DNA of 32,916 nucleotides from an uncultured archaeon (GCA_964392445.1 CAYMPD010000014.1:1-32916), one strand, 5' to 3'. Positions 5,901 through 32,916 are shown, numbered from the stretch's first letter. The notes: a model not told the origin generated them from the letters alone. Translations and numbers: made by a program.

Positions 5901-8784
5901 AAACCCCGAATGACCAAGAATTGTCATTCTCATTGGTTTCCTGTATCTGATTATCACAATCCGCTATAAATTCTATTCTTAATGAACTATCTCTTCCAGA
6001 AGGTATATGAGGAAGTTCTAACCCATAGAAGTAAACATTACCATAAGAAACCTCTCCGGATAACATTGTCTCGTGGGATCCATATCCAATAACAAATCCA
6101 TTTTTCTTCCATTTCACATTAAATGTCCCCCCTGTATTCTCTGAACCCACATTTTCCAGTACAGCTTTCAAATCGACCTTCATTCCTTCTTTTAAGGAAC
6201 CACCAAACAATTCGTAAGAATCAGTATAAGGGCCTTGATGAGGATAAATCTTTATATCCGATACCTTGAGGTTAGATTGGGTGGTTGAACTTGAGCTCGA
6301 AGCTTGAAGCATTAATTGAGTTTGGACTGAAGAGCTGGATTTTTGGGAAAATGTTGTTCCTAAACATCTTGATATTTTTAATGTTGGATCACCGAAAAAT
6401 AAGACACCATAATCTCTCTTTCTATCAACTTCATGTTCACTCCACCAATTTTTATAAGCGCTCCCAAAGTTAATGCAAATATCTAGAGGAGTAAAGAATT
6501 TATCTAAATGGGGAGGGGGATACCAAATTTTACTTGAAGCAAAAGCCGTTAAACCATCATCTTGATTATTATTGGAAAAAATATAGGACTTTGCGATATT
6601 ATCTTCAACAAAAGGATTTGCAGGATTATCTGCAAGATAATAACGCCCATTATTACAAGAACTAAGTAGGAAGAATTCAGGTTCCATATTAATATCAACT
6701 ATGCTTTCTGCTAAAACATCCTCCCAAGTCATGCCTTGATCTGTTTCCACCATAAATGAATGACCCCATGGATGACCATGTACATCTAATCTAACAAATT
6801 CAATATCTTTCGAACTTGAACATAGGAGAGATAGATATTTCTCTGAAGTGGTCAATTCCGGTTCATTGATAGCTAAAATATTAGCATATGATTTTCCAAT
6901 ATGATTTTCATATATATTTTTATCACAGTAAAATTCATTGACATTAGCGTAACATAGGGCATTCTCTGAAACTTGCCTATTGGTACGATATTCATGATTT
7001 CTATCAAAATAGTTATTTATTACATCCTCCTCAGAGCCTAAAGAAGACATATGACTACCAGGCAATCTACCAACCCAAATCTCTGGTTTCATATCTCCAG
7101 TCACGATTGTATTACTTCTAATAAGCTCAACTAGAGGTCTATGAGTATCTAAATAACCATTACTGCCTCTCTGAGGATCGCAGTCTGGGGAATATGAAAC
7201 CGGTTTATTTTCAGTATCAAAACAGGTGGGCTCCAAATTATCTTCCCAATCATCATCCAAATCCATATAGTATAAATCAGAAATGAATAAATCATAATAA
7301 TTTGTGATCTTGACATTATTTCCATTTTGATTGATGACTGAATCTGTTATAAAATCCTCATAGCTCTCAAAAAAGGGTATAGGTAAATCACCAACTAAAA
7401 TAGCACCGTCCAAATTTTGATACATCCATTGATTTTTCAGTTCTTCCCTAAGATACATCGCCCCACCATCATTTTCAGTGGAATCATAATTTGCTAAATC
7501 CTCAGGGGGATCCCATGATAACTGTTCTACTTCATATCCCTCAGACTCCAAATCAGCCTGATATTGGTTTAGAGAAGATTGAATTTTAGGTCTTAGTTCT
7601 TCATTGATTATTATTAAAACCTTGACTCTTTCATGAGAATGAAATAAATCATAATCAAAAGAAATTCTAGCGTTCCCTCCATTTTCAAAATAATCTATTC
7701 TGAAATTATGGTAACCAGAGTTTAAATCAACCATAACTGACTCTTTTCCATAAGAAGATTCTTCCCACATATCTATTTCAAGTTCACCATCTATCCACAA
7801 TCTCGCTCCATCGTCAGAACCTAATGAGAATGTATATAACCCCCCTTCTTCAAAGTGAATTTTTGTCGAAGATTTGAAATTGATTTCATCCGACTTTTCA
7901 TATGCAATCAAATCTCCCCCCCACTTATTATCGAACTCTATATCATCCTCATTGGGTCCATTTCCCATACAATTACCGTCACTATCATACCAGACTCTCT
8001 GCCAAGTATCTTCCGGATAATTCAACTCGGAACAAGTACCAGGAGATGAAGGTTCCGAATCAGAGGGAGGACCCATAATTTCAAATGAGACTCTAGGATT
8101 TCCCATATCACCAGCATGAGGTATACCCCCATGACAATAAGCAATTGCAAAATCATGATAACCTGCTTTTAAGTACACTTCCTTGTCCCAATATTCGTAC
8201 GTCTCGTAACTATGGGCATTCAAAACTACTTCCCCATCAATCCACAACTTAACATCGTAATCTGTACCTATACGGAACTTATAGTTGCCACTAGTGGGGA
8301 TATTTATCTTTCTTGAGGATTGAAAACCTATATCATCCCATTTTTCATGGCTATAAGGTATTCGAGGGAGATTTCCTCCTGGTACTTGAAAGTCCTCCTC
8401 AAACCAAAGATTATCAAATTCTTCTCCCTCTTCATCTGGACCATCTCCTAAGCATTCACTATAACAGTCATTTGGATCTCCACAATTATCGGTCCATGGT
8501 TGGCAGTAATCAAACCAGACCCTCTGCCATACTGATGGAGAATATCTCAAATTAGAACATATTCCTTCTGTTGACTCTGACGCACTTGATTGACTTTTAA
8601 TACCCAAAATTGAAAATATTCTATTTAACATACTTCCTCCTGAAGGTTGAGTTTGACCTCCTGAACAAAAAGGGAAACCTTCAAAGGAAGGAATATCACA
8701 GATATCAATTGAGAAAACCAAAGCCGATCCTAAAAATAGAAAAGCCAAGAGAAAAGCCAAAATGGCTTTATTGAATCTTAACAT
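2992..8784 (-). CDS. 1930-aa secreted multidomain protease: signal peptide, 2x PA14, peptidase C25 (gingipain-like), CARDB, Ig-like (Big_5), Thr linkers, Cys-rich domains, C-terminal dockerin-like motif
   Basis: PA14-like motifs YKFRIGTDYDVKLWIDGE and YTFSLGSDDGARLWIDGE. C25-like motifs AILVGDLP, SDLYYMDLD, PEIWVGRLP, DVHG (His at 6778-6780), LSSCNNG (Cys at 6655-6657), FFGDPTL. CARDB-like ADCDNQIQETNENDN. Big_5-like VSFNERL...VKDLYGNSL. Dockerin-like DYDGDCDIDILD. Confidence 0.85.
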   Translation of the reverse strand: MLRFNKAILAFLLAFLFLGSALVFSIDICDIPSFEGFPFCSGGQTQPSGGSMLNRIFSILGIKSQSSASESTEGICSNLRYSPSVWQRVWFDYCQPWTDNCGDPNDCYSECLGDGPDEEGEEFDNLWFEEDFQVPGGNLPRIPYSHEKWDDIGFQSSRKINIPTSGNYKFRIGTDYDVKLWIDGEVVLNAHSYETYEYWDKEVYLKAGYHDFAIAYCHGGIPHAGDMGNPRVSFEIMGPPSDSEPSSPGTCSELNYPEDTWQRVWYDSDGNCMGNGPNEDDIEFDNKWGGDLIAYEKSDEINFKSSTKIHFEEGGLYTFSLGSDDGARLWIDGELEIDMWEESSYGKESVMVDLNSGYHNFRIDYFENGGNARISFDYDLFHSHERVKVLIIINEELRPKIQSSLNQYQADLESEGYEVEQLSWDPPEDLANYDSTENDGGAMYLREELKNQWMYQNLDGAILVGDLPIPFFESYEDFITDSVINQNGNNVKITNYYDLFISDLYYMDLDDDWEDNLEPTCFDTENKPVSYSPDCDPQRGSNGYLDTHRPLVELIRSNTIVTGDMKPEIWVGRLPGSHMSSLGSEEDVINNYFDRNHEYRTNRQVSENALCYANVNEFYCDKNIYENHIGKSYANILAINEPELTTSEKYLSLLCSSSKDIEFVRLDVHGHPWGHSFMVETDQGMTWEDVLAESIVDINMEPEFFLLSSCNNGRYYLADNPANPFVEDNIAKSYIFSNNNQDDGLTAFASSKIWYPPPHLDKFFTPLDICINFGSAYKNWWSEHEVDRKRDYGVLFFGDPTLKISRCLGTTFSQKSSSSVQTQLMLQASSSSSTTQSNLKVSDIKIYPHQGPYTDSYELFGGSLKEGMKVDLKAVLENVGSENTGGTFNVKWKKNGFVIGYGSHETMLSGEVSYGNVYFYGLELPHIPSGRDSSLRIEFIADCDNQIQETNENDNSWSFGVYYIPKETEPPEVLGFYPEGQNIPTNVEPTVSFNERLNTNSINQNTFKIYDDNEVEIPQKDGSPEIFMPYDAKMVKIIPQDPLNGGSIYRVVVDSEVKDLYGNSLDSDQEFTFTVEGSSVTTSTTTTTIPTTTTTIIECGDLYWYENTEDHTLGSDWAIPHPSSTRSPPTQNNPLSQGEDVTLVINYGSTTTGTGAINDWASCGDGGSCGDWAFDGSDDRDAFTDSGSGLGISQENTAYGIRFENAECNTPEGCKIRYEYNVDGVGCHYYIYIEGGSETTTTTTVQTPSAGCELSSLSYSHDSDFDVDVDWRCGSSSKYWYMVKYKEDNQWTTSVDEYLGSGSDARVDTLNIKVPEECKTPGEDACKVIATCRETGHTASSCESYFDITANIELPPLRLEAVPDSRWGIELYDVDLEANLGFQPEQELAIRLYCDSTGGTKAKYSNTDFSNPDSDWVRRTDDYGNSYQTKIENTKFTVKDLCNYPKAGKYTIKGYLEGWNQIKEDETVVDIHRLPYCYSGDDGVQLYNFMTSKNQLEDPLGLGETFDIVFQSDAGHTNVHINPGQGITGCGGLIVSKSQCCPSWQGGGHCWCRKNCRASNIGHYSMGFSSDTCEGADYYYSIVDASSPSTNIKCNGGSCDHSFEELELTLQCSDNLDCGRTYYCLDQTNTCEPEEDYTSSIEIGSSGYIRFYSEDLKGNSESIKSRYLEVTIPTTTTIPTTTTTTTISPKTWVIEYETVCEDPSIEPIGMTETLYIFWPGRPFVVNHGTPGDAGQTREITITEEVSSSKVSGVYFGVEPTEEPSEDDALSLYGSPPHPAINYGTYWNPQVPMAHWYWDKLPEGKYTIKFLAPEEWCNPYQSTTTTTTIPCNPKPAPDPCPGSEFCGLISCWNSRRSDEDWTECFQYDYDGDCDIDILDIMKCISNLQQDGELGSYCKLEPDGTSTYSCNEGLECDPCQTTSSGSQWGYCV

Positions 8785-22153: not shown

Positions 22154-22927
22154 TTAATTCACCTCATATTTTTTAGCTAAAAATTTTGCAACATCTTCTG
22201 GTTGATTTATCTTGAAATCTATGTTTTTCGTTATCAGTATTGCGTCAGGATGATGATCGCCCTTTAGTATTTTTCCTGTCTTTGTTTTTTTAGGAAGTGT
22301 TTGTATCGGTGCTTTATCATAGTCACAGAAACCATGATCAGAAATTATTATTAACTCGTCATCTAATTCCACTAGTTTTGACAAGGATTTATCTATTTTT
22401 TTGTAGTAGTCCAGCATTATCGGTTCTCCCCAATGATGATGTGATAATTTATCTAAGGCCGTGTAACAGATAATCGAAACTTCTGGTTTGTTTTTGGTTA
22501 GAATTTCCAATGCCTTTTCTGTGACTGAATTAATTTCCTGTTTCAGTTCTTCTTCAGATATTGGAACTCCTTTACCGGGTGGGATAAAATTAACATTAAA
22601 ATTGTAGGGCGGGACTAGGAAAGGGACGTTTAAAGCCTTCACTGAAATTTCTTTTTTTTGTAATTTATCCCAGATGAATTCAGTTTCAATATCTTCTCTC
22701 GCAACTAACTTTCCATCTTCCACAAAATTATGATGTCCATGTTTTTCAGGTTTTAATCCCGAGAACATAGAACACCAGACAGATGCTGACCAAGGTTTTT
22801 GATCCAAGTGGAGAGTTTTATGATTATAATTTTCCAGTAATTTTTTGAATGTTGGTAATTCATCCAAATTCGGTTTAATAATATCCCAAGTAGCTCCGTC
22901 TATTCCTATGATTAGCATTGCTATCAC
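22154..22927 (-). CDS. Alkaline phosphatase superfamily (type I phosphodiesterase/nucleotide pyrophosphatase-like) protein, short form
   Basis: IIGIDGATW, PWSASVWCSMFSGLKPEKHG (Ser nucleophile position), ALDKLSHHHW, IISDHGF, GDHHPD. Confidence 0.82.
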   Translation of the reverse strand: MIAMLIIGIDGATWDIIKPNLDELPTFKKLLENYNHKTLHLDQKPWSASVWCSMFSGLKPEKHGHHNFVEDGKLVAREDIETEFIWDKLQKKEISVKALNVPFLVPPYNFNVNFIPPGKGVPISEEELKQEINSVTEKALEILTKNKPEVSIICYTALDKLSHHHWGEPIMLDYYKKIDKSLSKLVELDDELIIISDHGFCDYDKAPIQTLPKKTKTGKILKGDHHPDAILITKNIDFKINQPEDVAKFLAKKYEVN

Positions 22928-22928
22928 T

Positions 22929-23153
22929 TCAGTCCAAGTATCCTAAAGCTCTTAGTCTTCTTTTAACTTTTTCCTCTTCTTCTTTTGTGTATGCTTCATC
23001 TTTTTTTTCTTCAGCCAAGCTCGATAGCACCTCCCTCATTACAAAAGTTACATAATGTGATGCCGATGAAAACCCTGTACCTTCGATTCTTTTGTTGATT
23101 TTTTCATGAAGTGTTTTGGGTATACTCACCGTGGTATGTTTTCTTTCTGACAT
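22929..23153 (-). CDS. CopG/Arc ribbon-helix-helix regulator with C-terminal RLRALGYLD tail
   Basis: TTVSIPKTLHEKINKRIEGTGFSSASHYVTFVMREVL. ATG at 23153 (track uses TTG 23156); TTTAAATA box ~23-24 nt upstream, leaderless. Confidence 0.85.
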   Translation of the reverse strand: MSERKHTTVSIPKTLHEKINKRIEGTGFSSASHYVTFVMREVLSSLAEEKKDEAYTKEEEEKVKRRLRALGYLD

Positions 23154-23173
23154 CAAAGTATATAGGAACTTTG
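23154..23173. promoter_or_regulatory. Inverted repeat CAAAGT-N8-ACTTTG between TATA and start codon of the RHH gene (autoregulatory operator candidate)
   Basis: Perfect 6-bp arms at 23154-23159 and 23168-23173. Confidence 0.5.
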
Positions 23174-23249
23174 TCGTATTTAAATTTTAATGTCACTGCA
23201 TTAAAGAAAGTTAAAATCATGGCTAGTAATATATAAATGTTCACAGGGA

Positions 23250-24533
23250 TTAACTAGAAAGTTCTTCCCATTTCAAAAGGAAATTCTGAACAGGTATAAA
23301 AATAATCTTCCCACTATTGTATTTTTCTTCCTTTCCAATTTCTTTTGTAACTATTATACCCTTCTTTATATCAAATTCTTCAAGAAACTTTTTCATTCCT
23401 TTTGTTTCAGCTTCACCGTACTTAACCTCTATGGGCAATAAAGTTTTATCTTTCATTATTAAATCAATCTCATAACTATTTCTGTAATAATTAGTTCCAT
23501 TAACCGTGCTTATTACTATATTCTCAACGATCTTTTCAAGAAAGTTTTTTTCGTAAAAATTGTCTACAAAAGCGAATGAAATTCCTGTGTTTGTTAAATA
23601 TAATTTTTTTAACTTGCGTGAAGAAACTCGAAATCCTTTTCTATAATTATATACTATTTTAACAACCATAGCATATTCAAGATAACTTATGTAATCTATG
23701 ATTGTCTTTTTGCTCCTCTTTAAATCTCTTGACAATTTGTTATAGTTCAATATCATGCCAGGATTTTCAGCTATCATCCTCATTAAGTTCTTAAGAAGTT
23801 CTATATCTCTAATACCAAATTCAACTGGTAAATCTTTGTATATTATCTTCTCAATTACACTATTTCTAATATATTTCCTTATTTTTTCATCTTTTTCTTC
23901 ATCAATGATTTCTGGAAAACCTCCCTTTCTCAAATAATCAAAGAAAAGTGGTTTTATCTTTTCTTCGTAAAGTTCTAGATTATCCCATTGAATCTTTAAT
24001 CCTTTGAAATTCAGGAACTCCCTGAAACTTAAAGGTTTTAACTTAAAATCATAAATTCTACCTGCCAATGACTCCTTAGATTTTCTCTCAAGATTGACGG
24101 ATGCAGAACCTGATATGAAAAACTTAATATTCGGATAAAGATCGTAATAAATTTTTATTTTGTTTTGCCAGTTTTCAGACTTCTGTATTTCATCAAAGAA
24201 AACATACAATTTATCTAGTTCTCTGAAACCTTTTTTAAGTACTTTTTGTTTATAAGTTTCTAAAATTTCTTCTATATTCCCAGATTCTTGATCAAAAGAA
24301 AAATAGATTATTCTAGAAGGTTCTACATCATCATCAAGTAGTTTTTGTATTAGTTGATAAAAAAGCGTGGTTTTTCCCACCCTTCTTAGCCCTGTAACCA
24401 ATAAAATCTGCCTTTCTTCTATATAATCTAATATCTTATCGAATAAGGGTCTTTTGTATTCTTTCAGGAATATCTCATTCACACTATTTGCCGTCCACCA
24501 ATCATTAAACCTCGTTAATCTATCTATTTTCAT
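23250..24533 (-). CDS. AAA_14-type ATPase with C-terminal DUF4143 (PD-(D/E)xK-like) domain
   Basis: GLRRVGKTT, FFDEIQ, ISGSAS, SLAGR, GGFPE, KLYLTNTG, EIDLI...IEVKYG. Confidence 0.85.
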   Translation of the reverse strand: MKIDRLTRFNDWWTANSVNEIFLKEYKRPLFDKILDYIEERQILLVTGLRRVGKTTLFYQLIQKLLDDDVEPSRIIYFSFDQESGNIEEILETYKQKVLKKGFRELDKLYVFFDEIQKSENWQNKIKIYYDLYPNIKFFISGSASVNLERKSKESLAGRIYDFKLKPLSFREFLNFKGLKIQWDNLELYEEKIKPLFFDYLRKGGFPEIIDEEKDEKIRKYIRNSVIEKIIYKDLPVEFGIRDIELLKNLMRMIAENPGMILNYNKLSRDLKRSKKTIIDYISYLEYAMVVKIVYNYRKGFRVSSRKLKKLYLTNTGISFAFVDNFYEKNFLEKIVENIVISTVNGTNYYRNSYEIDLIMKDKTLLPIEVKYGEAETKGMKKFLEEFDIKKGIIVTKEIGKEEKYNSGKIIFIPVQNFLLKWEELSS

Positions 24534-24590
24534 ATTAGTATATTATACTTTACTAATATTTATATTTTTCGTATAGTACACTTTACTAAT
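24534..24590. promoter_or_regulatory. Leaderless promoter of the AAA ATPase with palindrome AGTATA-T-TATACT (24537-24549) and direct repeat ACTTTACTAAT (24547-24557, 24580-24590) flanking the TATA box
   Basis: Repeats read directly; TATAAATA on the minus strand at 24565-24558. Confidence 0.5.
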
Positions 24591-24618
24591 AAAAATGTCT
24601 GATTATAACTTTGCTTTA

Positions 24619-24681
24619 AATTCCCATATATTTTCTTGTAGATAATTCCTTCATAGGTAATTAATTACAATTTATTATATT
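24619..24681 (-). pseudogene. 63-bp copy of the abiEi promoter and first 12 codons (MKELSTRKYMGI*)
   Basis: 60/63 nt identical to 29053-29115; ATG at 24654, TAA at 24618-24616. Confidence 0.9.
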
Positions 24682-24825
24682 CATGACTTTTGACCAAATC
24701 TGAAGAGTTGTACTAACCCAATAAATACCTTAGACTTTCTAAAAACATAAAATAGTGTAAAATGAAGTTGATACTCTAGCCACAAGTGGAACTCTTATTA
24801 ATTTCATTCTTCATAATTTTTCCTA

Positions 24826-26016
24826 ATGTTAAACAGAGCCAAAGGTGTAATAAATGGAGTCCTCCAAGAAAAAGATCTCATTAAAAATACGTTCATAGTT
24901 GGTATAGCCACCTCAATCTCGTCTCTTTTAGCCTTTTTAGCGAATTTATTTCTGTCCAGAATGTTCGGTCCTGAGAGCTTCGGAACCTTTAAAACGGTTG
25001 TATATTTAGGAGGATTAGTCACGGGGTTAGCCGATCTCGGGATAAGTTTAACACTCATCAAGTATGTGGCCGAGTTCAATGCAAAGAAAAAGAAAAGTGT
25101 TGGTGCATTGGTAACTTCATTAGTAAAAATCAGAGTGATTGCTTATTTGGTAGTTATAATTGGGTTGGTTTTGACAAGAAATCAATTGGCTACCTATCTT
25201 CTGCATGATAGTTCTTTGTCTTATCTCTTCATTCCGTTGATTTTCATGGTTGGAGCGAGTTCTTTTAATTTTTTATCGGCGACTGTTCAGGGTTATGAGA
25301 ATTTTCAGTTATTTTCCTTTGCAACAATTGCTAGGAATGTTGTTTATCTGGGCTTAGGGTTGTTATTAGGTCATTTTTTTGGTATATCCTACGTAATTTT
25401 AGCTTTCGGAGTATCCACACTTTTAGCAAATCTTCTGTGCGTGAAATATCTGGTCAAGAAAAGAATTTTTCAAAAGGACGATGACGTAAATACAAAAGAA
25501 ATATTTCTGAATTATTCTCTCCCGCTTTTTGTCTTATCTGTACCTAATTATCTTACCAATGCTATAGTTCCTGTTTTGAGTTTGTTTTTTTCCACTGAAT
25601 TGATGGGTTATTATTCCTTCGCTTTTATGTTTTATTTTATTCCTTCTATTGTTTCTGGAAGTTTAAGTAGGGTTATTTTTCCGAAGATATCTAAGTTGAA
25701 TGGATTGAAAAAACATGTGGATGCTAAGAAGACATTGGGAAGAGTGTTTGTTCTTTATACTGTTTTTGTGATCTTAGGGGTTATTTTGACCTTATTTTTC
25801 TCTGAGTTGTTTATTTCTCTGGTTGCTCCAGCCTACTTACCAGGATTGATTCTTTTCAAGGTTCTGATTATTTTCGGACTCTTTGCTGGTTATGGAGGGA
25901 TATTGAATTTTTACTTGAATGCCAGGGAGAGGTTGAAAGAAGGTTCATTGGTGGTTTTGGTGGTTGTTGTTCTTTTGTTCTTGGTTAGTTATTTGGTTAT
26001 GAGTAGTTTGGGATAG
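24826..26016 (+). CDS. Wzx-like oligosaccharide flippase (polysaccharide biosynthesis/MOP family)
   Basis: Many TM segments; LSRMFGPESFG, DLGISLTLIKYVAE, GYYSFAF, IFPKISKL. Confidence 0.82.
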   Translation: MLNRAKGVINGVLQEKDLIKNTFIVGIATSISSLLAFLANLFLSRMFGPESFGTFKTVVYLGGLVTGLADLGISLTLIKYVAEFNAKKKKSVGALVTSLVKIRVIAYLVVIIGLVLTRNQLATYLLHDSSLSYLFIPLIFMVGASSFNFLSATVQGYENFQLFSFATIARNVVYLGLGLLLGHFFGISYVILAFGVSTLLANLLCVKYLVKKRIFQKDDDVNTKEIFLNYSLPLFVLSVPNYLTNAIVPVLSLFFSTELMGYYSFAFMFYFIPSIVSGSLSRVIFPKISKLNGLKKHVDAKKTLGRVFVLYTVFVILGVILTLFFSELFISLVAPAYLPGLILFKVLIIFGLFAGYGGILNFYLNARERLKEGSLVVLVVVVLLFLVSYLVMSSLG

Positions 26017-26045
26017 GATAATATCTTTTTCTTTTGAATTATGGG

Positions 26046-26154
26046 ATTAAATTTTAATTTTTTCCAGAAAAAAAAGATGGTAATGAAAGATTTCTGTTCA
26101 ACTGTGGTTAATGTTTTTCTGATGTTAGTAGTAACAACTGTGTTCGGGCAGTGA
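26046..26154 (+). repeat. Repeat copy 1: TATA-like box plus 25-aa mini-ORF (26077-26154, MVMKDFCSTVVNVFLMLVVTTVFGQ) homologous to the 5' end of the 30794 gene
   Basis: Manual alignment with 27450-27526, 29128-29238 and 30745-30860. Confidence 0.85.
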
Positions 26155-26213
26155 ATTGTATTTTTAATTTTAGGTTATTAATCATCTATTATTTGAAATA
26201 GAAATGAGAAGAC

Positions 26214-26774
26214 TTATGACTTTTGTAATTTTTTTACCTTATCTCTCATTTCTTCTATCAATTTCTGATTTAATCCATTTTGAACTAATTTAATTCTGGT
26301 TACAAAATTCCTAGCTATCTTCATAATAGATTCATATTTCTTGTAATCTAGTGATATTCCGTATTGAACGGACTCCCGAGCGCTCTTTACCTTCCAGAAA
26401 TAGTTAATATACTTTTTATCTATGACTAAAGATTCAAATTTCTCTTTCATATCCTTCAATTTGTTAAATTTCTTAATCCACTCGCTTTTAATTTCCTTTG
26501 AAAATAGATATTCCAAGACTGCTACAGTAGAAGTGTGATCCCTGCTTTTAATCCCCAATTTCGCCAATAATGAAAGAACTGAATGATACATAGCATAATA
26601 AGCTGCGATTACAACCCAATCATAATGCTCTAATTTACCCAAATCGGTCATTACTATGAGATTATGATCTGCCTTTTTCATATGACCTTTAGTTAGATTT
26701 TGACTAGGTTTAACCAATCTCAATTGTCTCTTATCTCTCTTTAAAGCCTTTCTAATAATATCTTCAGACTTCAT
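26214..26774 (-). CDS. HEPN domain protein (toxin-like partner of MNT)
   Basis: DWVVIAAYYAMYHSVLSLL..G..SRDH; ARESVQY; start overlaps the MNT stop by 11 nt. Confidence 0.82.
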   Translation of the reverse strand: MKSEDIIRKALKRDKRQLRLVKPSQNLTKGHMKKADHNLIVMTDLGKLEHYDWVVIAAYYAMYHSVLSLLAKLGIKSRDHTSTVAVLEYLFSKEIKSEWIKKFNKLKDMKEKFESLVIDKKYINYFWKVKSARESVQYGISLDYKKYESIMKIARNFVTRIKLVQNGLNQKLIEEMRDKVKKLQKS

Positions 26775-27360
26775 TTTTGTACACCAAATTTATGAATTTA
26801 TCAACTCCATATAGGATAAAATGATTTTCAATTATTTCCTTGATTATAGGTTCTTCGATCTCCTTTTTGAAATCTGAGGGTGTCATTGCTATAGCGTTCA
26901 ATTCTTCCCCATATTTTGCATATGTTTCCCCCATGGCTTTCTCTAACTCTAAATCTGATTTAGTTAAAATTAAAATGTCAATGTCGCTAGTTTCTGATTG
27001 GATGTTTTTTGCGTATGAACCAAAAAGTAGAACGGAATTTATATCTCCTTTATCTGAAACAGCGTTTATAAAATCCTTTAGAATCAGCTTTAATTGTTTA
27101 TTCCTTTCTAAAAATTCTTCTCTTCTTTCGATCTCAGAAAGCTTTATTAAAGCAACTGTTTTTTCATTTTTCAAGTTAAGGGTGCATAAATGAGATTTAC
27201 CTACTTTTTCCTTCTTAATTACTTTTTGTTCATGGAGTCTGTTTATAATCCTATAGGCAAAAGAATAATGCTCCCCTAGTTCTTCTGCTATTTCATTCAT
27301 AGTGAATTTTTTACCGGGATATCTACTCAATAAATCTACAATTTTTAATTTTAGTTCCAT
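26764..27360 (-). CDS. wHTH plus minimal nucleotidyltransferase (MNT), antitoxin-like
   Basis: N-terminal HTH (FTMNEIAEEL...YRIINRL); LLFGSYAK...SDIDILIL. Confidence 0.85.
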   Translation of the reverse strand: MELKLKIVDLLSRYPGKKFTMNEIAEELGEHYSFAYRIINRLHEQKVIKKEKVGKSHLCTLNLKNEKTVALIKLSEIERREEFLERNKQLKLILKDFINAVSDKGDINSVLLFGSYAKNIQSETSDIDILILTKSDLELEKAMGETYAKYGEELNAIAMTPSDFKKEIEEPIIKEIIENHFILYGVDKFINLVYKNEV

Positions 27361-27400
27361 ATTATCACTATTTATGATAATATTATCACTTTAAGTGATA
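27361..27400. promoter_or_regulatory. Tandem palindromic operators TATCA-N7-TGATA (27363-27379, 27384-27400) between TATA and start of the MNT-HEPN operon
   Basis: Two copies with 21-bp period; TTATATA box on the minus strand at ~27405-27399. Confidence 0.65.
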
Positions 27401-27449
27401 TATAAGTGTTACTGTTGATCGAATTATAGATAGATATTTCTTGGTTTGA

Positions 27450-27536
27450 ACAATCAACATTTAATTCTTAAAGTTTCATAATTTTCCCAGAAAACAGATG
27501 GTAATTAAAGATTTTCGCTCAACTGTAAAGATTTAA
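27450..27536 (+). repeat. Repeat copy 2: promoter plus 12-aa mini-ORF (27498-27536, MVIKDFRSTVKI)
   Basis: ACAATCAACATTTAATTCTTAAAG (27450-27473) matches 30745-30769 with one indel; coding homology ends at ~27526. Confidence 0.85.
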
Positions 27537-28297
27537 TCCAAAAACTTTACATTAGATTTTATTTCTTTCAACACTTTATCCATATTAGGTATTCTATTTA
27601 CAAGCCTTGATAATTCACGTTCCCAATAAGGTCTTAGTATCTCATCTAGACCTTCTGGGAAGAACTGATCTGTACTCTTGAAATCTAAGGTTTTTATTTT
27701 ACATTTCTTCAGAAAAAATTTTTCGGTTTTTTTCTTATCTGCATCTAGAGATAAAATCCTCCAAACATCATAATAATCTCGAGTTTTAGTTCTTTCTAGA
27801 ATAGATCTCAATTTTTCCGCGAATATTTCCTCGATAGACATTACTTTTACGGAAAAAGACGGATAATCAGAATAAGTCTTGAGTATCTTTTTTTGTTGGG
27901 TTTCAAATACATTTTCTGTTGTAATATCGACTTTGGCCCAATTCTTTCCAAGTAAGGCATTATATTGTATTTTCAACTGGAGATATTCTGGATTCTTATA
28001 TTTGCTTTTTAACTCAAACCATATGCCACTTTTTTCCTCAATAATATCTAATATTTCACCGATTTTTATCTGTTCGAGATTCCCTTTCGGTAAAGAAAAA
28101 TCCAGATCTTCGGATAATCTCCAAATCTGGGGGAAATATACTTTTGACAACGCAGTTCCGCCTTTGAATATCAAATCTGTCTCAGAAAAACCAAATAGTA
28201 ACCACCCTAAGACATAATCCTTCTCCACCATACCAAGATTTAACTGTCTTTTTCTTGCTTTCTCCAATAGTTCTCTTTTATCAATCAACACATCCAA
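27533..28297 (-). CDS. abiEii: AbiEii-family nucleotidyltransferase (type IV TA toxin)
   Basis: EKDYVLGWLL, FKGGTALSK...RLSEDLDF, AEKLRSILER.KTRDYYDVW. Confidence 0.88.
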   Translation of the reverse strand: MDVLIDKRELLEKARKRQLNLGMVEKDYVLGWLLFGFSETDLIFKGGTALSKVYFPQIWRLSEDLDFSLPKGNLEQIKIGEILDIIEEKSGIWFELKSKYKNPEYLQLKIQYNALLGKNWAKVDITTENVFETQQKKILKTYSDYPSFSVKVMSIEEIFAEKLRSILERTKTRDYYDVWRILSLDADKKKTEKFFLKKCKIKTLDFKSTDQFFPEGLDEILRPYWERELSRLVNRIPNMDKVLKEIKSNVKFLD

Positions 28298-29088
28298 CTC
28301 TCAGGACTAATTTTTTTGTTTATCAGCAATAACCAATCTTTGTCATATTCTCCCTTCTTTGGGGACAACGTATCCAATAAATTATAACCTTTTGAAAGTT
28401 CAGTTTTATCCAATTCATAATCTAGACCAAAAGTTTCCAGTATATAACCAAATCTCTTAAGAGCGGCAGAATTACTCATCTTTAATAAATAATCCTCAAT
28501 TTTACTGAGTTTGAGTTCTTTATGATTGAAAAATATAGCCTTTGCGACCTCATCTATCCCACCAGCATGCTCTGGATGATCTAAGCAATCTGCAATCGTT
28601 TTTTCTTTATCCGATATTTTAACTTTTCTTCCTTCCACTTCGATTTCCTCATAACCAAAAAATTTCTTATCTATCAATTTAACAAAATAGAATTTAGAAT
28701 TGAGTATATCTAAGGGTTTTTTGACCTTTTTTGTTGCAATAAAGACCGTATTGGGTATTTCATCAGTCAGTCCATGATAATTCAGTGCTGACCAATAACC
28801 AATATAATAAGGTTCTACTAAATGAGAAGCTATTCGGAAATCATGAATGATGAATGCGCCAGCTCCTCTTGGACCTATATCCATAGGAACTAATGCATAA
28901 AGCCCTCTTTTTAGGGGTAATATCCAGCCTTTTTTAGCTAGTTTATGTAGTATCTTATTTGGATTTCCTATTATTTCTTCCGCGTCTTCTGAAGTGAAGA
29001 TATCTTTATCTTTCTTAGCTAAAGATAATAATAGATGTGACTCTTTTTTTCCAATTCCTTTATATTTTCTTGTAGATAATTCCCTCAT
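28285..29088 (-). CDS. abiEi: AbiEi-family antitoxin/transcriptional regulator
   Basis: N-terminal wHTH (LHKLAKKGWI..LKRGLY); YYIGYWSALNYHGLTDEIP; EKTIADCLDHP; overlaps the abiEii start. Confidence 0.85.
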   Translation of the reverse strand: MRELSTRKYKGIGKKESHLLLSLAKKDKDIFTSEDAEEIIGNPNKILHKLAKKGWILPLKRGLYALVPMDIGPRGAGAFIIHDFRIASHLVEPYYIGYWSALNYHGLTDEIPNTVFIATKKVKKPLDILNSKFYFVKLIDKKFFGYEEIEVEGRKVKISDKEKTIADCLDHPEHAGGIDEVAKAIFFNHKELKLSKIEDYLLKMSNSAALKRFGYILETFGLDYELDKTELSKGYNLLDTLSPKKGEYDKDWLLLINKKISPESWMC

Positions 29089-29090
29089 AG

Positions 29091-29102
29091 GTAATTAATT
29101 AC
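29091..29102. promoter_or_regulatory. Perfect palindrome GTAATTAATTAC just upstream of the abiEi ATG (operator candidate), also preserved at 24657-24668
   Basis: Seen directly; AbiEi proteins are known to autoregulate via promoter inverted repeats. Confidence 0.5.
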
Positions 29103-29127
29103 AATTTATTATATTTATTTGTTTCGG

Positions 29128-29238
29128 TTAATTCTTGAAATCTCATATTTTTTGTAGAAACAGATGGTAATGAAAGATTTGAGGTCAACTACTTTCAATG
29201 TGTTTCTAATGTTGTTAGTGATAACTGTGTTTGGATAA
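29128..29238 (+). repeat. Repeat copy 3: promoter plus 24-aa mini-ORF (29164-29238, MVMKDLRSTTFNVFLMLLVITVFG)
   Basis: 18/24 aa identical to copy 1; 14 of the first 21 aa identical to the 30794 protein. Confidence 0.85.
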
Positions 29239-29322
29239 TATAATTTTTTGCTATTCACCTATCCTTCGGCTTTAATGATTCAATAATTTCTTCTCTCTCG
29301 GATTTCTAGGTCTACTATGATA

Positions 29323-30693
29323 TCATTGCGACATAAAATTCTTTTTCAAATTATCCAGGTCATATAAAAGCAAGTCTTTCCTTCTAAGTTCTTTCAAATC
29401 CTTCTTAAAACCTGATTTACTAAACAAGGCGTACTGTTCCTTTCTTTTTTCTTTTCCCCATCTGACGTATTTAGACTTCTTTTCCAGATCTTGAAGAACT
29501 TCTAAACCAACTGGATTTTTACTCCACTTGCACTCCCCAAACAGTATTTTGTTCTCTTGTTCATTCAAACCCAAAATGTCAATTTCCTTGTCCTTGTACC
29601 ACCATCTTCCTACTTCAGCATAATTAGTTCCAAGCAAGAACTCTCGGCATACTTTCTCAAAAATAAAACTTAAGTAAGCGTCAAATTCTTTCTTGAATTT
29701 CCTCCAAGAAGGATCAATTTGCCAGTTTTCAATTTCCCCAAAATTTTTTGAAATAAACCTGAACCAAAAATTAAAGAAATTATCCTTCATCCTATAAATT
29801 CCTCTCCTCCTTTTTTTAGTCAAAATCGAAGTTTCCTTTCTCACAAATCCTAGATCTCTTAAAATCGACAGGTAAGAAGAAACATTTTTAGCTTCCATGT
29901 AACTATGGTTTGCTATTTCTGTGATTTTTGTATATCCTAATGATATTGATTCTAATATTTCAAAATATGTTCTTGGCTCTCTTAATTCCTCTTCCAGAAG
30001 GAGTTTCGGTTCCCTAAACAAAAATGCACTGGGGTTGAAAATATTTTCCTTTATTTCTTTTTCAAGGTTTTTACCTTCAAAGAATTCAAGATATTTAGGT
30101 ATTCCATCACAAATTCCATAAATCTTTATTATTTCTTCTATATTCGAGTCTTTATACCATTCTAATAGATGTCTAAATTTTAGTGGTTGCAACATTATCT
30201 GTCCTGTTGTTCTTCCATAAAGTGGAGACTTATGACCTAGAATCTCCCTCTCCATCATGGAAACAGCAGAACCCGAAAGTATCAACATAATGTCTTTGTT
30301 TTGTAGATTCTCATCTATAATCGACTGAAATTCAGCAAGTATATCTTCGTTATTCTTTATCAAATAAGAGAACTCGTCTATTGAAACTATTGTTTTTTTT
30401 CGCTTTTTTTTTGAAATGAAATTAAAGCAATCTTTGAATGATTTAAAGTTGGGAGAAGGTATATCAAAGTGTTCTGCTATTTTTTCATTGAATTTTTCTA
30501 AGTTATATTCCCATTTTCTATTCTCACAAAGTAAAAATATCTTATTTTTATTTTTCAAAAATTCTTGAAGTAATCTAGTCTTCCCTACTCTTCTTCTTCC
30601 ACTCAAAATAAGAAACTCAAAGCCTTCCTTTTCATGGAAGTTCTCTAAAGATCTTAACTCTTTTTTTCTATTTACGAATTTTTTTCGAATCAT
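29323..30693 (-). CDS. Archaeal ATPase (ATPase_2) with wHTH and DUF234 PD-(D/E)xK-like C-terminal domain
   Basis: FVNRKKEL, GRRRVGKT, IDEFSYL, LSGS, SPLYGR, DNFFNFWFRF, GRWW..KEIDI...FGECKW. Confidence 0.88.
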   Translation of the reverse strand: MIRKKFVNRKKELRSLENFHEKEGFEFLILSGRRRVGKTRLLQEFLKNKNKIFLLCENRKWEYNLEKFNEKIAEHFDIPSPNFKSFKDCFNFISKKKRKKTIVSIDEFSYLIKNNEDILAEFQSIIDENLQNKDIMLILSGSAVSMMEREILGHKSPLYGRTTGQIMLQPLKFRHLLEWYKDSNIEEIIKIYGICDGIPKYLEFFEGKNLEKEIKENIFNPSAFLFREPKLLLEEELREPRTYFEILESISLGYTKITEIANHSYMEAKNVSSYLSILRDLGFVRKETSILTKKRRRGIYRMKDNFFNFWFRFISKNFGEIENWQIDPSWRKFKKEFDAYLSFIFEKVCREFLLGTNYAEVGRWWYKDKEIDILGLNEQENKILFGECKWSKNPVGLEVLQDLEKKSKYVRWGKEKRKEQYALFSKSGFKKDLKELRRKDLLLYDLDNLKKNFMSQ

Positions 30694-30793
30694 AATTATA
30701 TAATCATAATTCGAATTTAAATATTTAACTCACACTATCAAAAGACAATCAACATTTAATTTCTTAAAGGGTAATAATAGACCGCAGAAGTAT

Positions 30794-31549
30794 ATGGGAA
30801 TAAAAGAGTTTAGGTCAACCATCATTAATGTATTCCTGATGTTGTTAGTAATGACTGGCTTCTTCTATTTTTACCATTTTTTTAATCCCTTTGATTTTCC
30901 TGGGCTTTGGCAAAGATTGTTGTTTTTTAATATTGTTTTTGGGGCTTTGAGTTTTTTTCTTTATTTTGAGGAGATTTCGACTCTGTTTCGGGTTTTTAGA
31001 ATGATTGAAATGGATAATCCGTGGGGAAAAATAAGGAGTTTTTTTGCTAGAATTGGTAAAAATAAAAACAAGAAACCTTGGAAAAGAAAAATCAAATACA
31101 GGTATGATTATCAGAAATCAAAAGTTGTGAAGAAGGGTCCTAAATTCTCTAAAGTAAATTTAAGAAAAATTGGTGGTTTTTTTTCGGGAATTAGAGATTT
31201 TTTTCGGGAATTAAGTGGTTTATCCCTAAAAGGTAAATTTAAACTGGTATTTTTCTTTTCGGGGATTATTGGTTATAGTGTTTTTCTTTATTGGATTTAT
31301 CCTAAATTTAGTTTTGATGAGTTCATGTTCTTTGTTCTTCTGTTATATGTTCCTATTTCCTTAATTTTCAAACTGGATCCCAGATATCCGATTGGGGTGG
31401 CCTTAGGGTTGTTGGTGATATGTGCTATAGTTCTTGCTCAGGGTTTTGAGGACTATGCTAATAGAGTTGCTATTTATGCGTATTATGGACTGGTTATTGG
31501 TGTTGGGTTAATGTTTGTTGATTATTTGAAGAATCCTAATGAGGATTGA
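30794..31549 (+). CDS. Multi-pass membrane protein (2 N-terminal TM, Lys-rich loop, ~4 C-terminal TM); intact member of the repeated 5'-end family
   Basis: Hydrophobic segments; C-terminal DPRYPIGVALGLL...ANRVAIYAYYGLVIGV; CTTAAAG box 24 nt upstream of the ATG. Confidence 0.8.
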   Translation: MGIKEFRSTIINVFLMLLVMTGFFYFYHFFNPFDFPGLWQRLLFFNIVFGALSFFLYFEEISTLFRVFRMIEMDNPWGKIRSFFARIGKNKNKKPWKRKIKYRYDYQKSKVVKKGPKFSKVNLRKIGGFFSGIRDFFRELSGLSLKGKFKLVFFFSGIIGYSVFLYWIYPKFSFDEFMFFVLLLYVPISLIFKLDPRYPIGVALGLLVICAIVLAQGFEDYANRVAIYAYYGLVIGVGLMFVDYLKNPNED

Positions 31550-31640: not shown

Positions 31641-32153
31641 ATGAAATTGGATGAAATAAATATAAAATTACCCAGGAAGAGTAAATCATTGGAGAATATT
31701 CTTAAAAGTTGTAAGGAAAGAAAGAAATTTGTAAAGGATCCCCCAGAAAATTACAAAAAAAGGTTAAAAAAATCAAAACATGATTTAGCGCGGGCAAAAG
31801 ATGAGTTTAAGGAAAAATGTTGGGATTGGACAATAATAAAAACATATTATGCTATTTTTCATGCCGGAAATACGCTTCTGTCAAAAAGGAAGGGTTTATT
31901 TTCAAAAGATCATTCCTGTCTTATAGTAGCATTAAAAAATTGGGATTTAATAGATGAAGAACTTTTCAAAGAGTTAAGAAATATATACGAAAACTTTTCT
32001 GATACTGTGAGTATGGATTTGACTTTCCAATTAAAGAAAATCAGTCAGTATAATGTTGAATTATGGGAAGAACTTACCAAAGAGGATGCTGAGACTGTAT
32101 TGAAAATAGCTGAGAAACTCGTGAATTATGTGGAAGGTGAAGTATATGATTGA
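31641..32153 (+). CDS. HEPN domain protein
   Basis: DWTIIKTYYAIFHAGNTLL...SKDH; LKKISQY. Confidence 0.82.
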   Translation: MKLDEINIKLPRKSKSLENILKSCKERKKFVKDPPENYKKRLKKSKHDLARAKDEFKEKCWDWTIIKTYYAIFHAGNTLLSKRKGLFSKDHSCLIVALKNWDLIDEELFKELRNIYENFSDTVSMDLTFQLKKISQYNVELWEELTKEDAETVLKIAEKLVNYVEGEVYD

Positions 32154-32790
32154 AGAAATATTGCCTTCAAGTAAATCTAGAATAAAACTAGTGGAAACTA
32201 TTTTTAAGATTCCTGGAATTAACATAAACGGATTAATTAAGAAAACGGGGTCTTCCCCAAATTTTGTGATTGATTATGTTAATAAACTTGTTGAAAAGGG
32301 TGTTTTAAAAGAAAAAAGAATAGGTGGAGAAGAAAAATCCCACATAAGGTTATCATATCCAAATTTAAATTCAGATAATGGTTTGATTGTTTTTTCCTTT
32401 GTTGAGAAAAAGAAGAGAGAAGAGTTTATTAATAAATACGAAGAATTTGGTCCTATTGTAAAACAAATAGCAGATCTGTATAAAGATTTTGACATCGATT
32501 TTATACTGGTTTATGGTAGTTTTGCAAGATTTTCGGCTGATGAATCTAGTGATGTTGATATTTTAATTGTAAGTGAGGAATTAACAAAAGATAAGGGTAG
32601 GAGATTTGGAGAAGTTTTTGTATCCTTAGGGAGGGAATATTCCATAAAAATAGAATCAATCGAAAAATTCATTAAAAATTTGGATGGAGCATTACACCAG
32701 AATATTATAGAAGATCATGTTATTTTAAAAGGGGAGAGGAAATTTCTTGAAACTCTCGCAAAGTCCGATTTTTTCATAGAGAAATTTTAA
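32146..32790 (+). CDS. wHTH plus minimal nucleotidyltransferase (MNT)
   Basis: ATG 32146 with GGTGA RBS and ATGATTGA overlap (track uses 32128); LVYGSFAR...SDVDILIV. Confidence 0.85.
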   Translation: MIEEILPSSKSRIKLVETIFKIPGININGLIKKTGSSPNFVIDYVNKLVEKGVLKEKRIGGEEKSHIRLSYPNLNSDNGLIVFSFVEKKKREEFINKYEEFGPIVKQIADLYKDFDIDFILVYGSFARFSADESSDVDILIVSEELTKDKGRRFGEVFVSLGREYSIKIESIEKFIKNLDGALHQNIIEDHVILKGERKFLETLAKSDFFIEKF

Positions 32791-32800
32791 CCCCAACCAA

Positions 32801-32870
32801 CTTTTTTCTGAAGAAGGTTTACACTTTATCAGTATTTATTACTTTTTATTTTTATTTATTTACTAAAGTT
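32801..32870 (+). terminator. T-rich tracts after the HEPN-MNT operon, possible archaeal terminator
   Basis: CTTTTTTC at 32801-32808 and further T-runs. Confidence 0.3.
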
Positions 32871-32916
32871 TTGCGTTTTTAACGTTAATTATTTGTTTTA
32901 GGAATAAGAATACTAT

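Follow-up and report, generated by a model that had tools for sequence, protein, structure and literature searches.

Contig C14, a stretch of 32,916 nt (33 kb) that was analyzed as one window over its full length, comes from a DPANN, Aenigmarchaeota-type archaeon and carries four direct copies of the promoter-like region and 5′ end of a single membrane-protein gene, with a small toxin-antitoxin or candidate defence cassette in each of the three intervals. The region between a conserved regulator gene and the conserved membrane-protein gene (23209–30746) would represent an accretion hot spot, into which small self-contained cassettes entered three times at the start of the membrane-protein gene. 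We hold, with about as much belief as doubt, that the cassettes were inserted serially by host recombination, and that the gene start was duplicated over a long stretch or replaced in the process. This would be an archaeal form of insertion with long target duplication (ILTD), in tandem and with toxin-antitoxin genes. The parent genome (G000; 1.2 Mb, 54 contigs, 95% complete) has metagenome-assembled genomes (MAGs) of Candidatus Aenigmarchaeota/Aenigmatarchaeota as its nearest named relatives, and its source sample is a microbial-mat metagenome. Domains were assigned with Pfam on all open reading frames (ORFs) of the island and defence families with PADLOC; NCBIfam and Rfam were also consulted, the latter with zero matches in the window.

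A repeat search of the window yields one direct-repeat family of four copies, with a length of 76–120 nt, a mutual identity of 63–80% and start-to-start spacings of 1421, 1666 and 1630 nt. Pairwise BLAST among the copies within the window gives E-values from 2e-7 to 2e-14. Each copy consists of a promoter-like region, an ATG (at 26077, 27498, 29164 and 30794) and the first 10–24 codons of the membrane-protein gene located at 30794–31549:

26040–26149, plus strand: copy 1, a stub with the promoter-like region and codons 1–23, then GG; it reads MVMKDFCSTVVNVFLMLVVTTVFGQ and then a stop.
27451–27526, plus strand: copy 2, a stub from −47 to +29 with 10 codons, then Lys, Ile and a stop codon that overlaps the AbiEii stop codon.
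29125–29235, plus strand: copy 3, a stub from about −39 to +71, then GG; it reads MVMKDLRSTTFNVFLMLLVITVFG and then a stop.
30747–31549, plus strand: copy 4 (repeat copy proper, 30747–30864) with the intact gene (30794–31549, 251 aa), whose promoter starts at −47.

Only copy 4 opens a long ORF, and the homologues of its 251-aa product (224–270 aa) have N-termini that match the stub peptides. The membrane protein has no Pfam or NCBIfam family, and its look-alikes in the protein atlas are all hypothetical proteins. An in-frame stop codon is found within three codons past the break in all three stubs (chance ~0.006). All four copies retain a TT(A/G)AA block upstream of the ATG (about −30 to −25), which presumably acts as a TATA box. 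The sequence ACAATCAACATTTAATT(T)CTTAAAG is common to copies 2 and 4 (at 27451 and 30747), and ACAATCAA, at −47 to −40, is likewise present in these two and missing in copy 1.

The intervals between successive copies are each occupied by one minus-strand module. The modules have their own promoters and face away from the membrane-protein gene:

26214–27360, minus strand: cassette A (span 26150–27450), HEPN (26214–26774) and winged helix-turn-helix (wHTH)-MNT (26764–27360), by Pfam; the MNT protein is PADLOC PDC-M05A.
27533–29088, minus strand: cassette B (span 27527–29133), AbiEii toxin (27533–28297) and AbiEi antitoxin (28285–29088), by Pfam and PADLOC (1e-66, 4e-78).
29323–30693, minus strand: cassette C (span 29236–30746), a protein with ATPase_2, wHTH and DUF234, by Pfam; PADLOC candidate family PDC-S27 (2e-49).

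Every cassette protein thus belongs to a toxin-antitoxin or (candidate) defence family, and each cassette is single-copy in the genome. The AbiE pair, a type IV toxin-antitoxin (abortive infection) system, has a wHTH antitoxin with a C-terminal domain (AbiEi) and a nucleotidyltransferase toxin (AbiEii); it contains PF13338, PF09407 and PF08843, and its two genes overlap by 13 nt. The original prediction, read from the same DNA, had described four copies with these start codons and spacings, a full gene after the last one only, one minus-strand module per interval (MNT-HEPN, AbiEi-AbiEii and ATPase-DUF234), the motif of copies 2 and 4 and a TATA-like box in all four; the repeat search, BLAST, Pfam and PADLOC bear out this anatomy. 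It had also tied the element to the cassette borders, and a whole-genome search indeed places it at the borders of this locus, with no copy elsewhere in the 1.2-Mb genome. A dispersed repeat or a miniature inverted-repeat transposable element (MITE) is ruled out by this confinement. No fifth copy was found by BLAST in the window, including a degenerate one upstream of the flippase gene or beside the regulator gene. An assembly artefact is very unlikely because the copies are only 63–80% identical and Logan contigs run across the copy 1 and copy 3 junctions. These contigs originate from the one source sample, at ~4–5x word depth, and therefore add no independent biological support; two further runs of the same study contain next to nothing of the stretch.

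The junctions of cassettes A and C occupy the same positions. In both, the left copy ends at codon 23 plus GG (+73) and the right copy starts at −47 (ACAATCAAC...). The left copy of cassette B ends at +29, and its right copy starts at about −39. Copies 1 and 3 thus break after codon 23 plus GG, and copy 2 after codon 10. The earlier argument that differing right-hand breakpoints speak against one precise cut site holds in part: the positions are as it had them and the AbiE cassette does differ, but cassettes A and C share both edges. The common −47 edge may merely be the edge of a conserved promoter, and the common +73 edge leaves as possibilities a site-specific component, or common descent of the ‘frame’ followed by cassette exchange and stacking by unequal crossing-over. 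Within copy 2, the block from −47 to −24 matches copy 4 at 24/25 positions, and the remainder is nearer to copies 1 and 3. A crossover mosaic is not claimed for this copy, as conservation of most of the block (from about −39 on) extends to copy 3, and the block may be the core of the promoter.

The orthologous locus was compared in four relatives (G001, locus L019; G012, locus L020; and loci L038 and L039); two metagenome and five genome loci were recovered in total. G001 belongs to the same genus, but its neighbouring proteins are only ~79% identical, and the comparison is not one at strain level. Its locus contains, in order, a PAPS-reductase-like gene, a phosphodiesterase-like gene and a gene for a 74-aa CopG/RelB-like regulator, all on the minus strand, a spacer of 102 nt, and the membrane-protein gene on the plus strand. 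The same three minus-strand genes are present in the window, where they form the left flank of the array:

22928–23208, minus strand: conserved left flank, with the CopG/RHH-type (ribbon-helix-helix) regulator gene (22928–23153) that heads the PAPS-reductase/phosphodiesterase operon, plus 55 nt of upstream region (translation; BLASTN against G001).

Window positions 22948–23208 align to L019 3080–3345 with 70% identity (BLASTN). The homology runs through the regulator gene and the adjoining 55 nt and stops at 23208, which defines the island as 23209–30746 (7.5 kb). An empty site is thus present in a related genome, with the regulator and membrane-protein genes 102 nt apart. In the more distant relative G012, a gene of 673 aa lies between the operon and the membrane-protein gene, and the upstream content is therefore variable among relatives. 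The repeats that flank the inserts in the window exceed 30 bp, and the gene-start sequence is present once in each of the related loci. These comparisons support the predicted accretion of accessory cassettes, one beside the other, at a protein-gene start.

G001 also contains an AbiE system. The AbiE pair of the window is 78–80% identical at the amino acid level to a pair in G001 that adjoins the 3′ end of the membrane-protein gene. This value is close to the 79% of the neighbouring phosphodiesterase-like protein (22154–22927), but the membrane protein reaches only ~50% identity with its orthologue in G001; either the anchor gene evolves rapidly or a xenologue has taken its place. The stop codons of AbiEii and the membrane-protein gene overlap in G001, where the 3′ ends of the two genes meet. 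In the window, AbiEii meets copy 2 with an unchanged register, and Lys-Ile-stop closes the frame in both genomes.

A different kind of array is found in another genome of the genus, G004 (contig C14, locus L050). It consists of toxin-antitoxin-type cassettes, among them an AbiEii that is 66% identical to that of the window, and is punctuated by six copies of a GC-rich two-hairpin element of 35–43 nt (CTTCCGCCTGCGGCGTGTCCCGCAGGGACGAAAAT; positions 40–82, 1322–1364, 2572–2614, 3852–3894, 5925–5967 and 6746–6788) instead of gene-end stubs. The second hairpin of the element shows compensatory changes (GTCCC/GGGAC versus GTCAC/GTGAC). The element belongs to no Rfam family and is absent from G000.

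The copies in the window differ from each other in the manner of coding sequences. The minimum number of changes among the four is 6, 4 and 21 at codon positions 1, 2 and 3, respectively, with 21/31 at the third position (p = 9e-5 against an even spread). The excess persists (p = 0.002) against a third-position expectation of 41%, our estimate for neutral decay of one copy while the other evolves under constraint. Arg7 is conserved but encoded by CGC in copy 2 and by AGG in copies 3 and 4. The third-position bias indicates that the copies diverged as coding sequences in different lineages; on the simplest reading they are alleles, and recombination with a diverged relative was involved. It fits either a cassette that arrived with its own gene end or a working gene that was later replaced by a diverged allele; for the four-copy array, import with the cassette needs half as many events as later replacement. 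Judged from these substitutions, a gene start from another lineage carried by each cassette is favoured over plain duplication with neutral decay. The predicted alternative that each cassette either carries or duplicated the 5′ end of the gene thereby leans to carrying; the Campbell-type integration that had been proposed with it is a plausible route.

The arrangement recurs at other places in the genome. Self-BLAST reveals many short direct repeats that are 0.5–4 kb apart, and at 11 or more other loci the repeat, sharply bordered and 43–97 nt long, corresponds to one end, 3′ or 5′, of a host gene. The 0.5–2.7 kb between the repeat copies at these loci contain one or two small genes. Examples, with domains assigned by Pfam, are the following:

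MNT-HepT, behind a TtuA-like gene.
RHH-PIN, behind a gene of 309 aa.
ParE, behind rpl34e, with a repeat identical at 75/75 nt.
Fic, behind a gene of 55 aa.

Repeat identity at the other loci ranges from 77% to 100%. The differences between copies at 11 of them again fall mainly on the third codon position (8, 9 and 30 at positions 1, 2 and 3; 30/47; p = 1.8e-5 and 1.3e-3). Most of these stubs are 3′ ends that lack a start codon of their own and are untranslatable alone, which makes selection on the stubs unlikely as the common cause of the bias. The simplest reading of these patterns is that the copies at each site are alleles evolved in different lineages. The device is thus not special to the membrane-protein gene. 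No junction motif shared by the 12 loci was seen by eye in alignments, with no formal motif search being run. The duplicated sequences are unrelated from site to site, and a locus-specific attachment site is therefore not needed; the presence of such scars at different gene ends, about a dozen in all, speaks for a general route that does not depend on sequence.

An integron, or a cluster of attC sites lacking integron-integrases (CALIN), was considered and is rejected, as the locus has no attC-like fold and no IntI. The single-stranded DNA folds of copies 1–4 are no more stable than those of shuffled sequences (z = −0.7, +0.1, −1.7 and +0.5), and the copies are homologous to a conserved coding N-terminus. 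No transposase, integrase, recombinase or other mobile-element gene is found in the island or in the 33-kb contig (Pfam, all ORFs). The original prediction had reported neither attC nor integrase in the window, in agreement with these data, and had named tyrosine or serine recombinases as something to look for in the genome. Two proteins with PF00589 are encoded on other contigs, namely XerA (NF040815, 261 bits versus a cut-off of 220) and a tyrosine recombinase of 397 aa that remains under all curated cut-offs; no serine recombinase (PF00239) is found genome-wide. The best match in the genome to the integron integrase family TIGR02249 is XerA itself, whose score of 249.9 lies under the cut-off of 265. 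Neither an inverted repeat nor a core-type site is found at the junctions.

In the mechanism that we prefer, serial insertion by host recombination, each entry would have left two copies of the gene start, one that stayed with the gene and another left behind as a stub, which a stop closes within 1–3 codons. At least one copy per event would come from another lineage by recombination, most simply along with the cassette. The recombination machinery of the host could have used the gene start as a homology arm, in a crossover that was unequal or of the Campbell type and in which a dedicated integrase or an attC-like site would not be involved. The joint arrival of a cassette with a new gene start, homologous recombination as the joining process and the order of events are what this proposal supplies to the observed anatomy.

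Several observations weigh against this mechanism. None of the four related loci contains stubs or an array at the orthologous gene, contrary to the prediction of a variable number of stub-flanked cassettes in relatives. The site of AbiE differs, being the 3′ end of the membrane-protein gene in G001 and the position after codon 10 of copy 2 here, and because of this difference some stubs could be deletion remnants of whole gene copies. Copies that are 63–80% identical over 70–120 nt are too dissimilar to recombine homologously today, and any recombination between them must have acted on closer sequences. The identical junction positions on both sides of cassettes A and C (+73 and −47) are not predicted by a sequence-blind process. 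The third-position bias could also arise from in-place duplication with later allele replacement, or from stubs that are translated and selected. Lastly, no excised circle, excision junction or alternative junction is seen in the low-depth Logan contigs of the one sample, which give no evidence either way.

The alternative that survives best is ILTD in place, which we nevertheless consider rather unlikely. Staggered breaks ~70–120 nt apart would have been filled in around each cassette, with later divergence and occasional replacement of the attached copy by diverged alleles. Sharp repeat boundaries, both here and at 11 other loci, speak for such a process, and so do the pairs with 97–100% identity (rpl34e/ParE, 75/75 nt), which would be seen soon after duplication. 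Precedent is given by PMC2853133. On the other hand, twice as many events are needed to account for the coding-type divergence of the four copies, and ACAATCAA of copies 2 and 4 is missing from copy 1, the supposed original. To our knowledge, no enzyme makes such staggered cuts.

The constancy of two of the three junction pairs would also fit a site-specific integration in trans, by XerA or the 397-aa tyrosine recombinase, with a crossover near codon 24. The incoming DNA would bring a replacement promoter and start, and the stubs would correspond to attL, as in tandem tycheposons, where tandem arrays split by partial target copies are known (10.1101/2020.12.28.424599). In its favour, the ends of copies 1 and 3 coincide to the nucleotide, with GG next, the junctions of cassettes A and C agree on both sides, and the two enzymes are encoded elsewhere in the genome. 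The chance that this account is correct is nonetheless small. About 11 unrelated gene ends are scarred with no common junction motif, which would require many specificities from two enzymes; copy 2 breaks elsewhere; and the junctions have no inverted repeat or core-type site, nor does any cassette encode an integrase or excisionase.

The early stops and the register of AbiE are also compatible with a stack of former whole units, each composed of the membrane-protein gene and a convergent cassette, that arose by unequal crossing-over or import of xenologues and then lost the gene bodies, with the stubs as remnants. The arrangement in G001, where AbiE abuts the 3′ end of the membrane-protein gene with overlapping stops, resembles that of copy 2, with the same register and Lys-Ile-stop in both. 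A stop within three codons past the break in 3/3 stubs (chance ~0.006) and a membrane protein ~50% identical to that of G001, versus ~79% for the neighbours, would also follow. However, the match between copy 2 and G001 comprises only 5 nt, and local alignment of the flanks past the breaks of copies 1 and 3 with the 3′ end of the membrane-protein gene is not significant (p = 0.27 and 0.34). The genome contains no further piece of the gene body, and a shared breakpoint is not expected of two independent deletions. We attribute to this stack no more than a slight probability.

Finally, the stubs may be retained for a function, as antisense promoters directed into the 3′ ends of the toxin and ATPase genes or as hydrophobic micropeptides of 12–25 aa. 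The idea concerns retention and is compatible with the other models; it is suggested by the TT(A/G)AA block, ATG and open frame kept in 3/3 stubs, by their third-position bias and early stops, and by the orientation of each toward the stop codon of the next minus-strand gene, but it is the least probable of these accounts, as the same third-position bias is found in 3′-end stubs elsewhere that have no start codon or promoter, and frames of this length do not permit a proper test of selection.

Serial insertion with duplication or replacement of the gene start has its closest counterpart in the ILTD of restriction-modification genes (Nobusato et al. 2000, Gene 259:99; Furuta, Abe and Kobayashi 2010, PMC2853133), in which site-unique repeats of 30 to >400 bp, often at the 3′ ends of genes, flank an insert that has no mobility gene and is missing at an empty site in a relative. 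The locus shares with ILTD a small ‘selfish’ defence or addiction module without a mobility gene, site-unique repeats at a gene end that far exceed the target duplication of a transposon in length, and an empty site in a relative. The cases in PMC2853133 are bacterial only, with single insertions and near-identical repeats, and no archaeal case passed its screen. By contrast, the host is here an archaeon, the inserts are toxin-antitoxin and candidate defence cassettes, and three of them stand in tandem at the start of a gene, including its promoter. The copies are 63–80% identical and of an allelic type, which fits the import of alleles or later allelic replacement.

The tycheposons of Prochlorococcus (10.1101/2020.12.28.424599) resemble the array in that successive integrations push older ones outward, partial copies of the anchor lie between them and the anchor is restored. 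They differ in carrying or depending on a tyrosine recombinase and in using 3′ parts of tRNA genes with a defined core, whereas the present locus uses the 5′ end of a protein gene and cassettes of 1.3–1.6 kb without a recombinase, in a genome in which many gene ends are used. Integrons and CALINs, reported in Archaea (PMC9668308), have attC sites that are imperfect palindromes of 57–141 nt folding as single strands. An ordered array of promoter-proximal accessory cassettes, often toxin-antitoxin pairs, with a repeated element between them is common to both. The repeat in the window, however, is a promoter with a gene start, with no folded attC, IntI or attI, and every cassette has a promoter of its own and is directed away from the anchor. 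Core-gene-flanked defence hot spots and toxin-antitoxin islets (PMC10250203; PMC13617665) likewise contain variable content between the same conserved genes, without a mobile-element gene and with host recombination presumed. The corresponding models predict clean replacement with no duplication of the flanks, while a displaced copy of the flank is found here at every cassette border.

The locus bears on the question of how toxin-antitoxin and small defence modules enter chromosomes without a transposase or integrase; a 2026 study states that the integration of toxin-antitoxin modules remains unclear (PMC13617665). In a full-text search of the literature, incomplete in its coverage, no description was found of gene-end duplications around toxin-antitoxin cassettes in DPANN archaea. 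With three cassettes, four gene starts, an empty site in a relative and a divergence pattern that assigns the gene starts to different lineages, the locus is a clean record of multiple events. The locus and the single events, about a dozen in number, jointly point to a route through host recombination that was documented until now only for bacterial restriction-modification genes. A wider reading, which we offer tentatively and regard as doubtful, is that DPANN archaea have a general form of cassette capture that does without a recombinase of its own. Host gene ends would act as portable homology arms, and toxin-antitoxin and defence cassettes would travel between lineages with an allelic gene end, be joined by host recombination and stack into integron-like arrays. 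If true, portable gene-end arms would explain the movement of toxin-antitoxin modules without mobile elements. Displaced gene ends could further be used as markers for cassette borders, and hence for new defence genes, in DPANN metagenomes.

The island and its surroundings contain further features beside the array:

23250–24533, minus strand: ATPase with AAA_14 and DUF4143, a single-gene accessory module missing at the empty site of G001 (Pfam; PADLOC candidate family PDC-S01, 3e-67).
24609–24701, minus strand: orphan AbiEi promoter with the first 15 codons, 83% identical over 93 nt to 29043–29135, with a 66-nt core at 94% (repeat search, BLAST).
24826–26016, plus strand: Wzx-like polysaccharide flippase of 396 aa, within the island (Pfam Polysacc_synt, 9e-21; NCBIfam matches weak).
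31641–32790, plus strand: further pair of HEPN (31641–32153) and MNT (32128–32790), downstream of the membrane-protein gene (Pfam).

Half of the contig (2992–19298) is taken up by three minus-strand ORFs of very large size (1930, 2229 and 1229 aa), the last of which has no Pfam family. The orphan AbiEi copy lies directly upstream of the AAA_14 ATPase gene and 4434 bp to the left of its partner, and the pair (24609–24701 and 29043–29135) brackets the flippase gene, copy 1, cassette A, copy 2 and the body of AbiE. The orphan may be what is left of another AbiE cassette, or of a segment with several cassettes that recombination has relocated. Just upstream of the same AAA_14/DUF4143 gene, two direct repeats of 24 nt (TTAGTATATTATACTTTACTAATA; 24535–24558 and 24568–24591) are 88% identical and 33 nt apart, and look like an operator. 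The palindromic promoter region of the ATPase-DUF234 gene (30674–30715; TTCGAATCATAATTATATAATCATAATTCGAA) has a 42-nt match with 93% identity on another contig of the genome (G000:C11:27062–27103), probably an operator common to paralogous ATPase genes.

No duplicated 3′ end of the membrane-protein gene was found around the downstream HEPN-MNT pair, past which the island may continue. Exact copies of gene ends break assemblies, as at the right end of the contig. Its final 55 nt (32862–32916) are identical to the last 55 nt of contig C6 (G000:C6:49606–49660), in which they come after a gene's stop codon. The break in the assembly thus coincides with an exact repeat of 55 nt or more, which may be a further duplicated gene flank.

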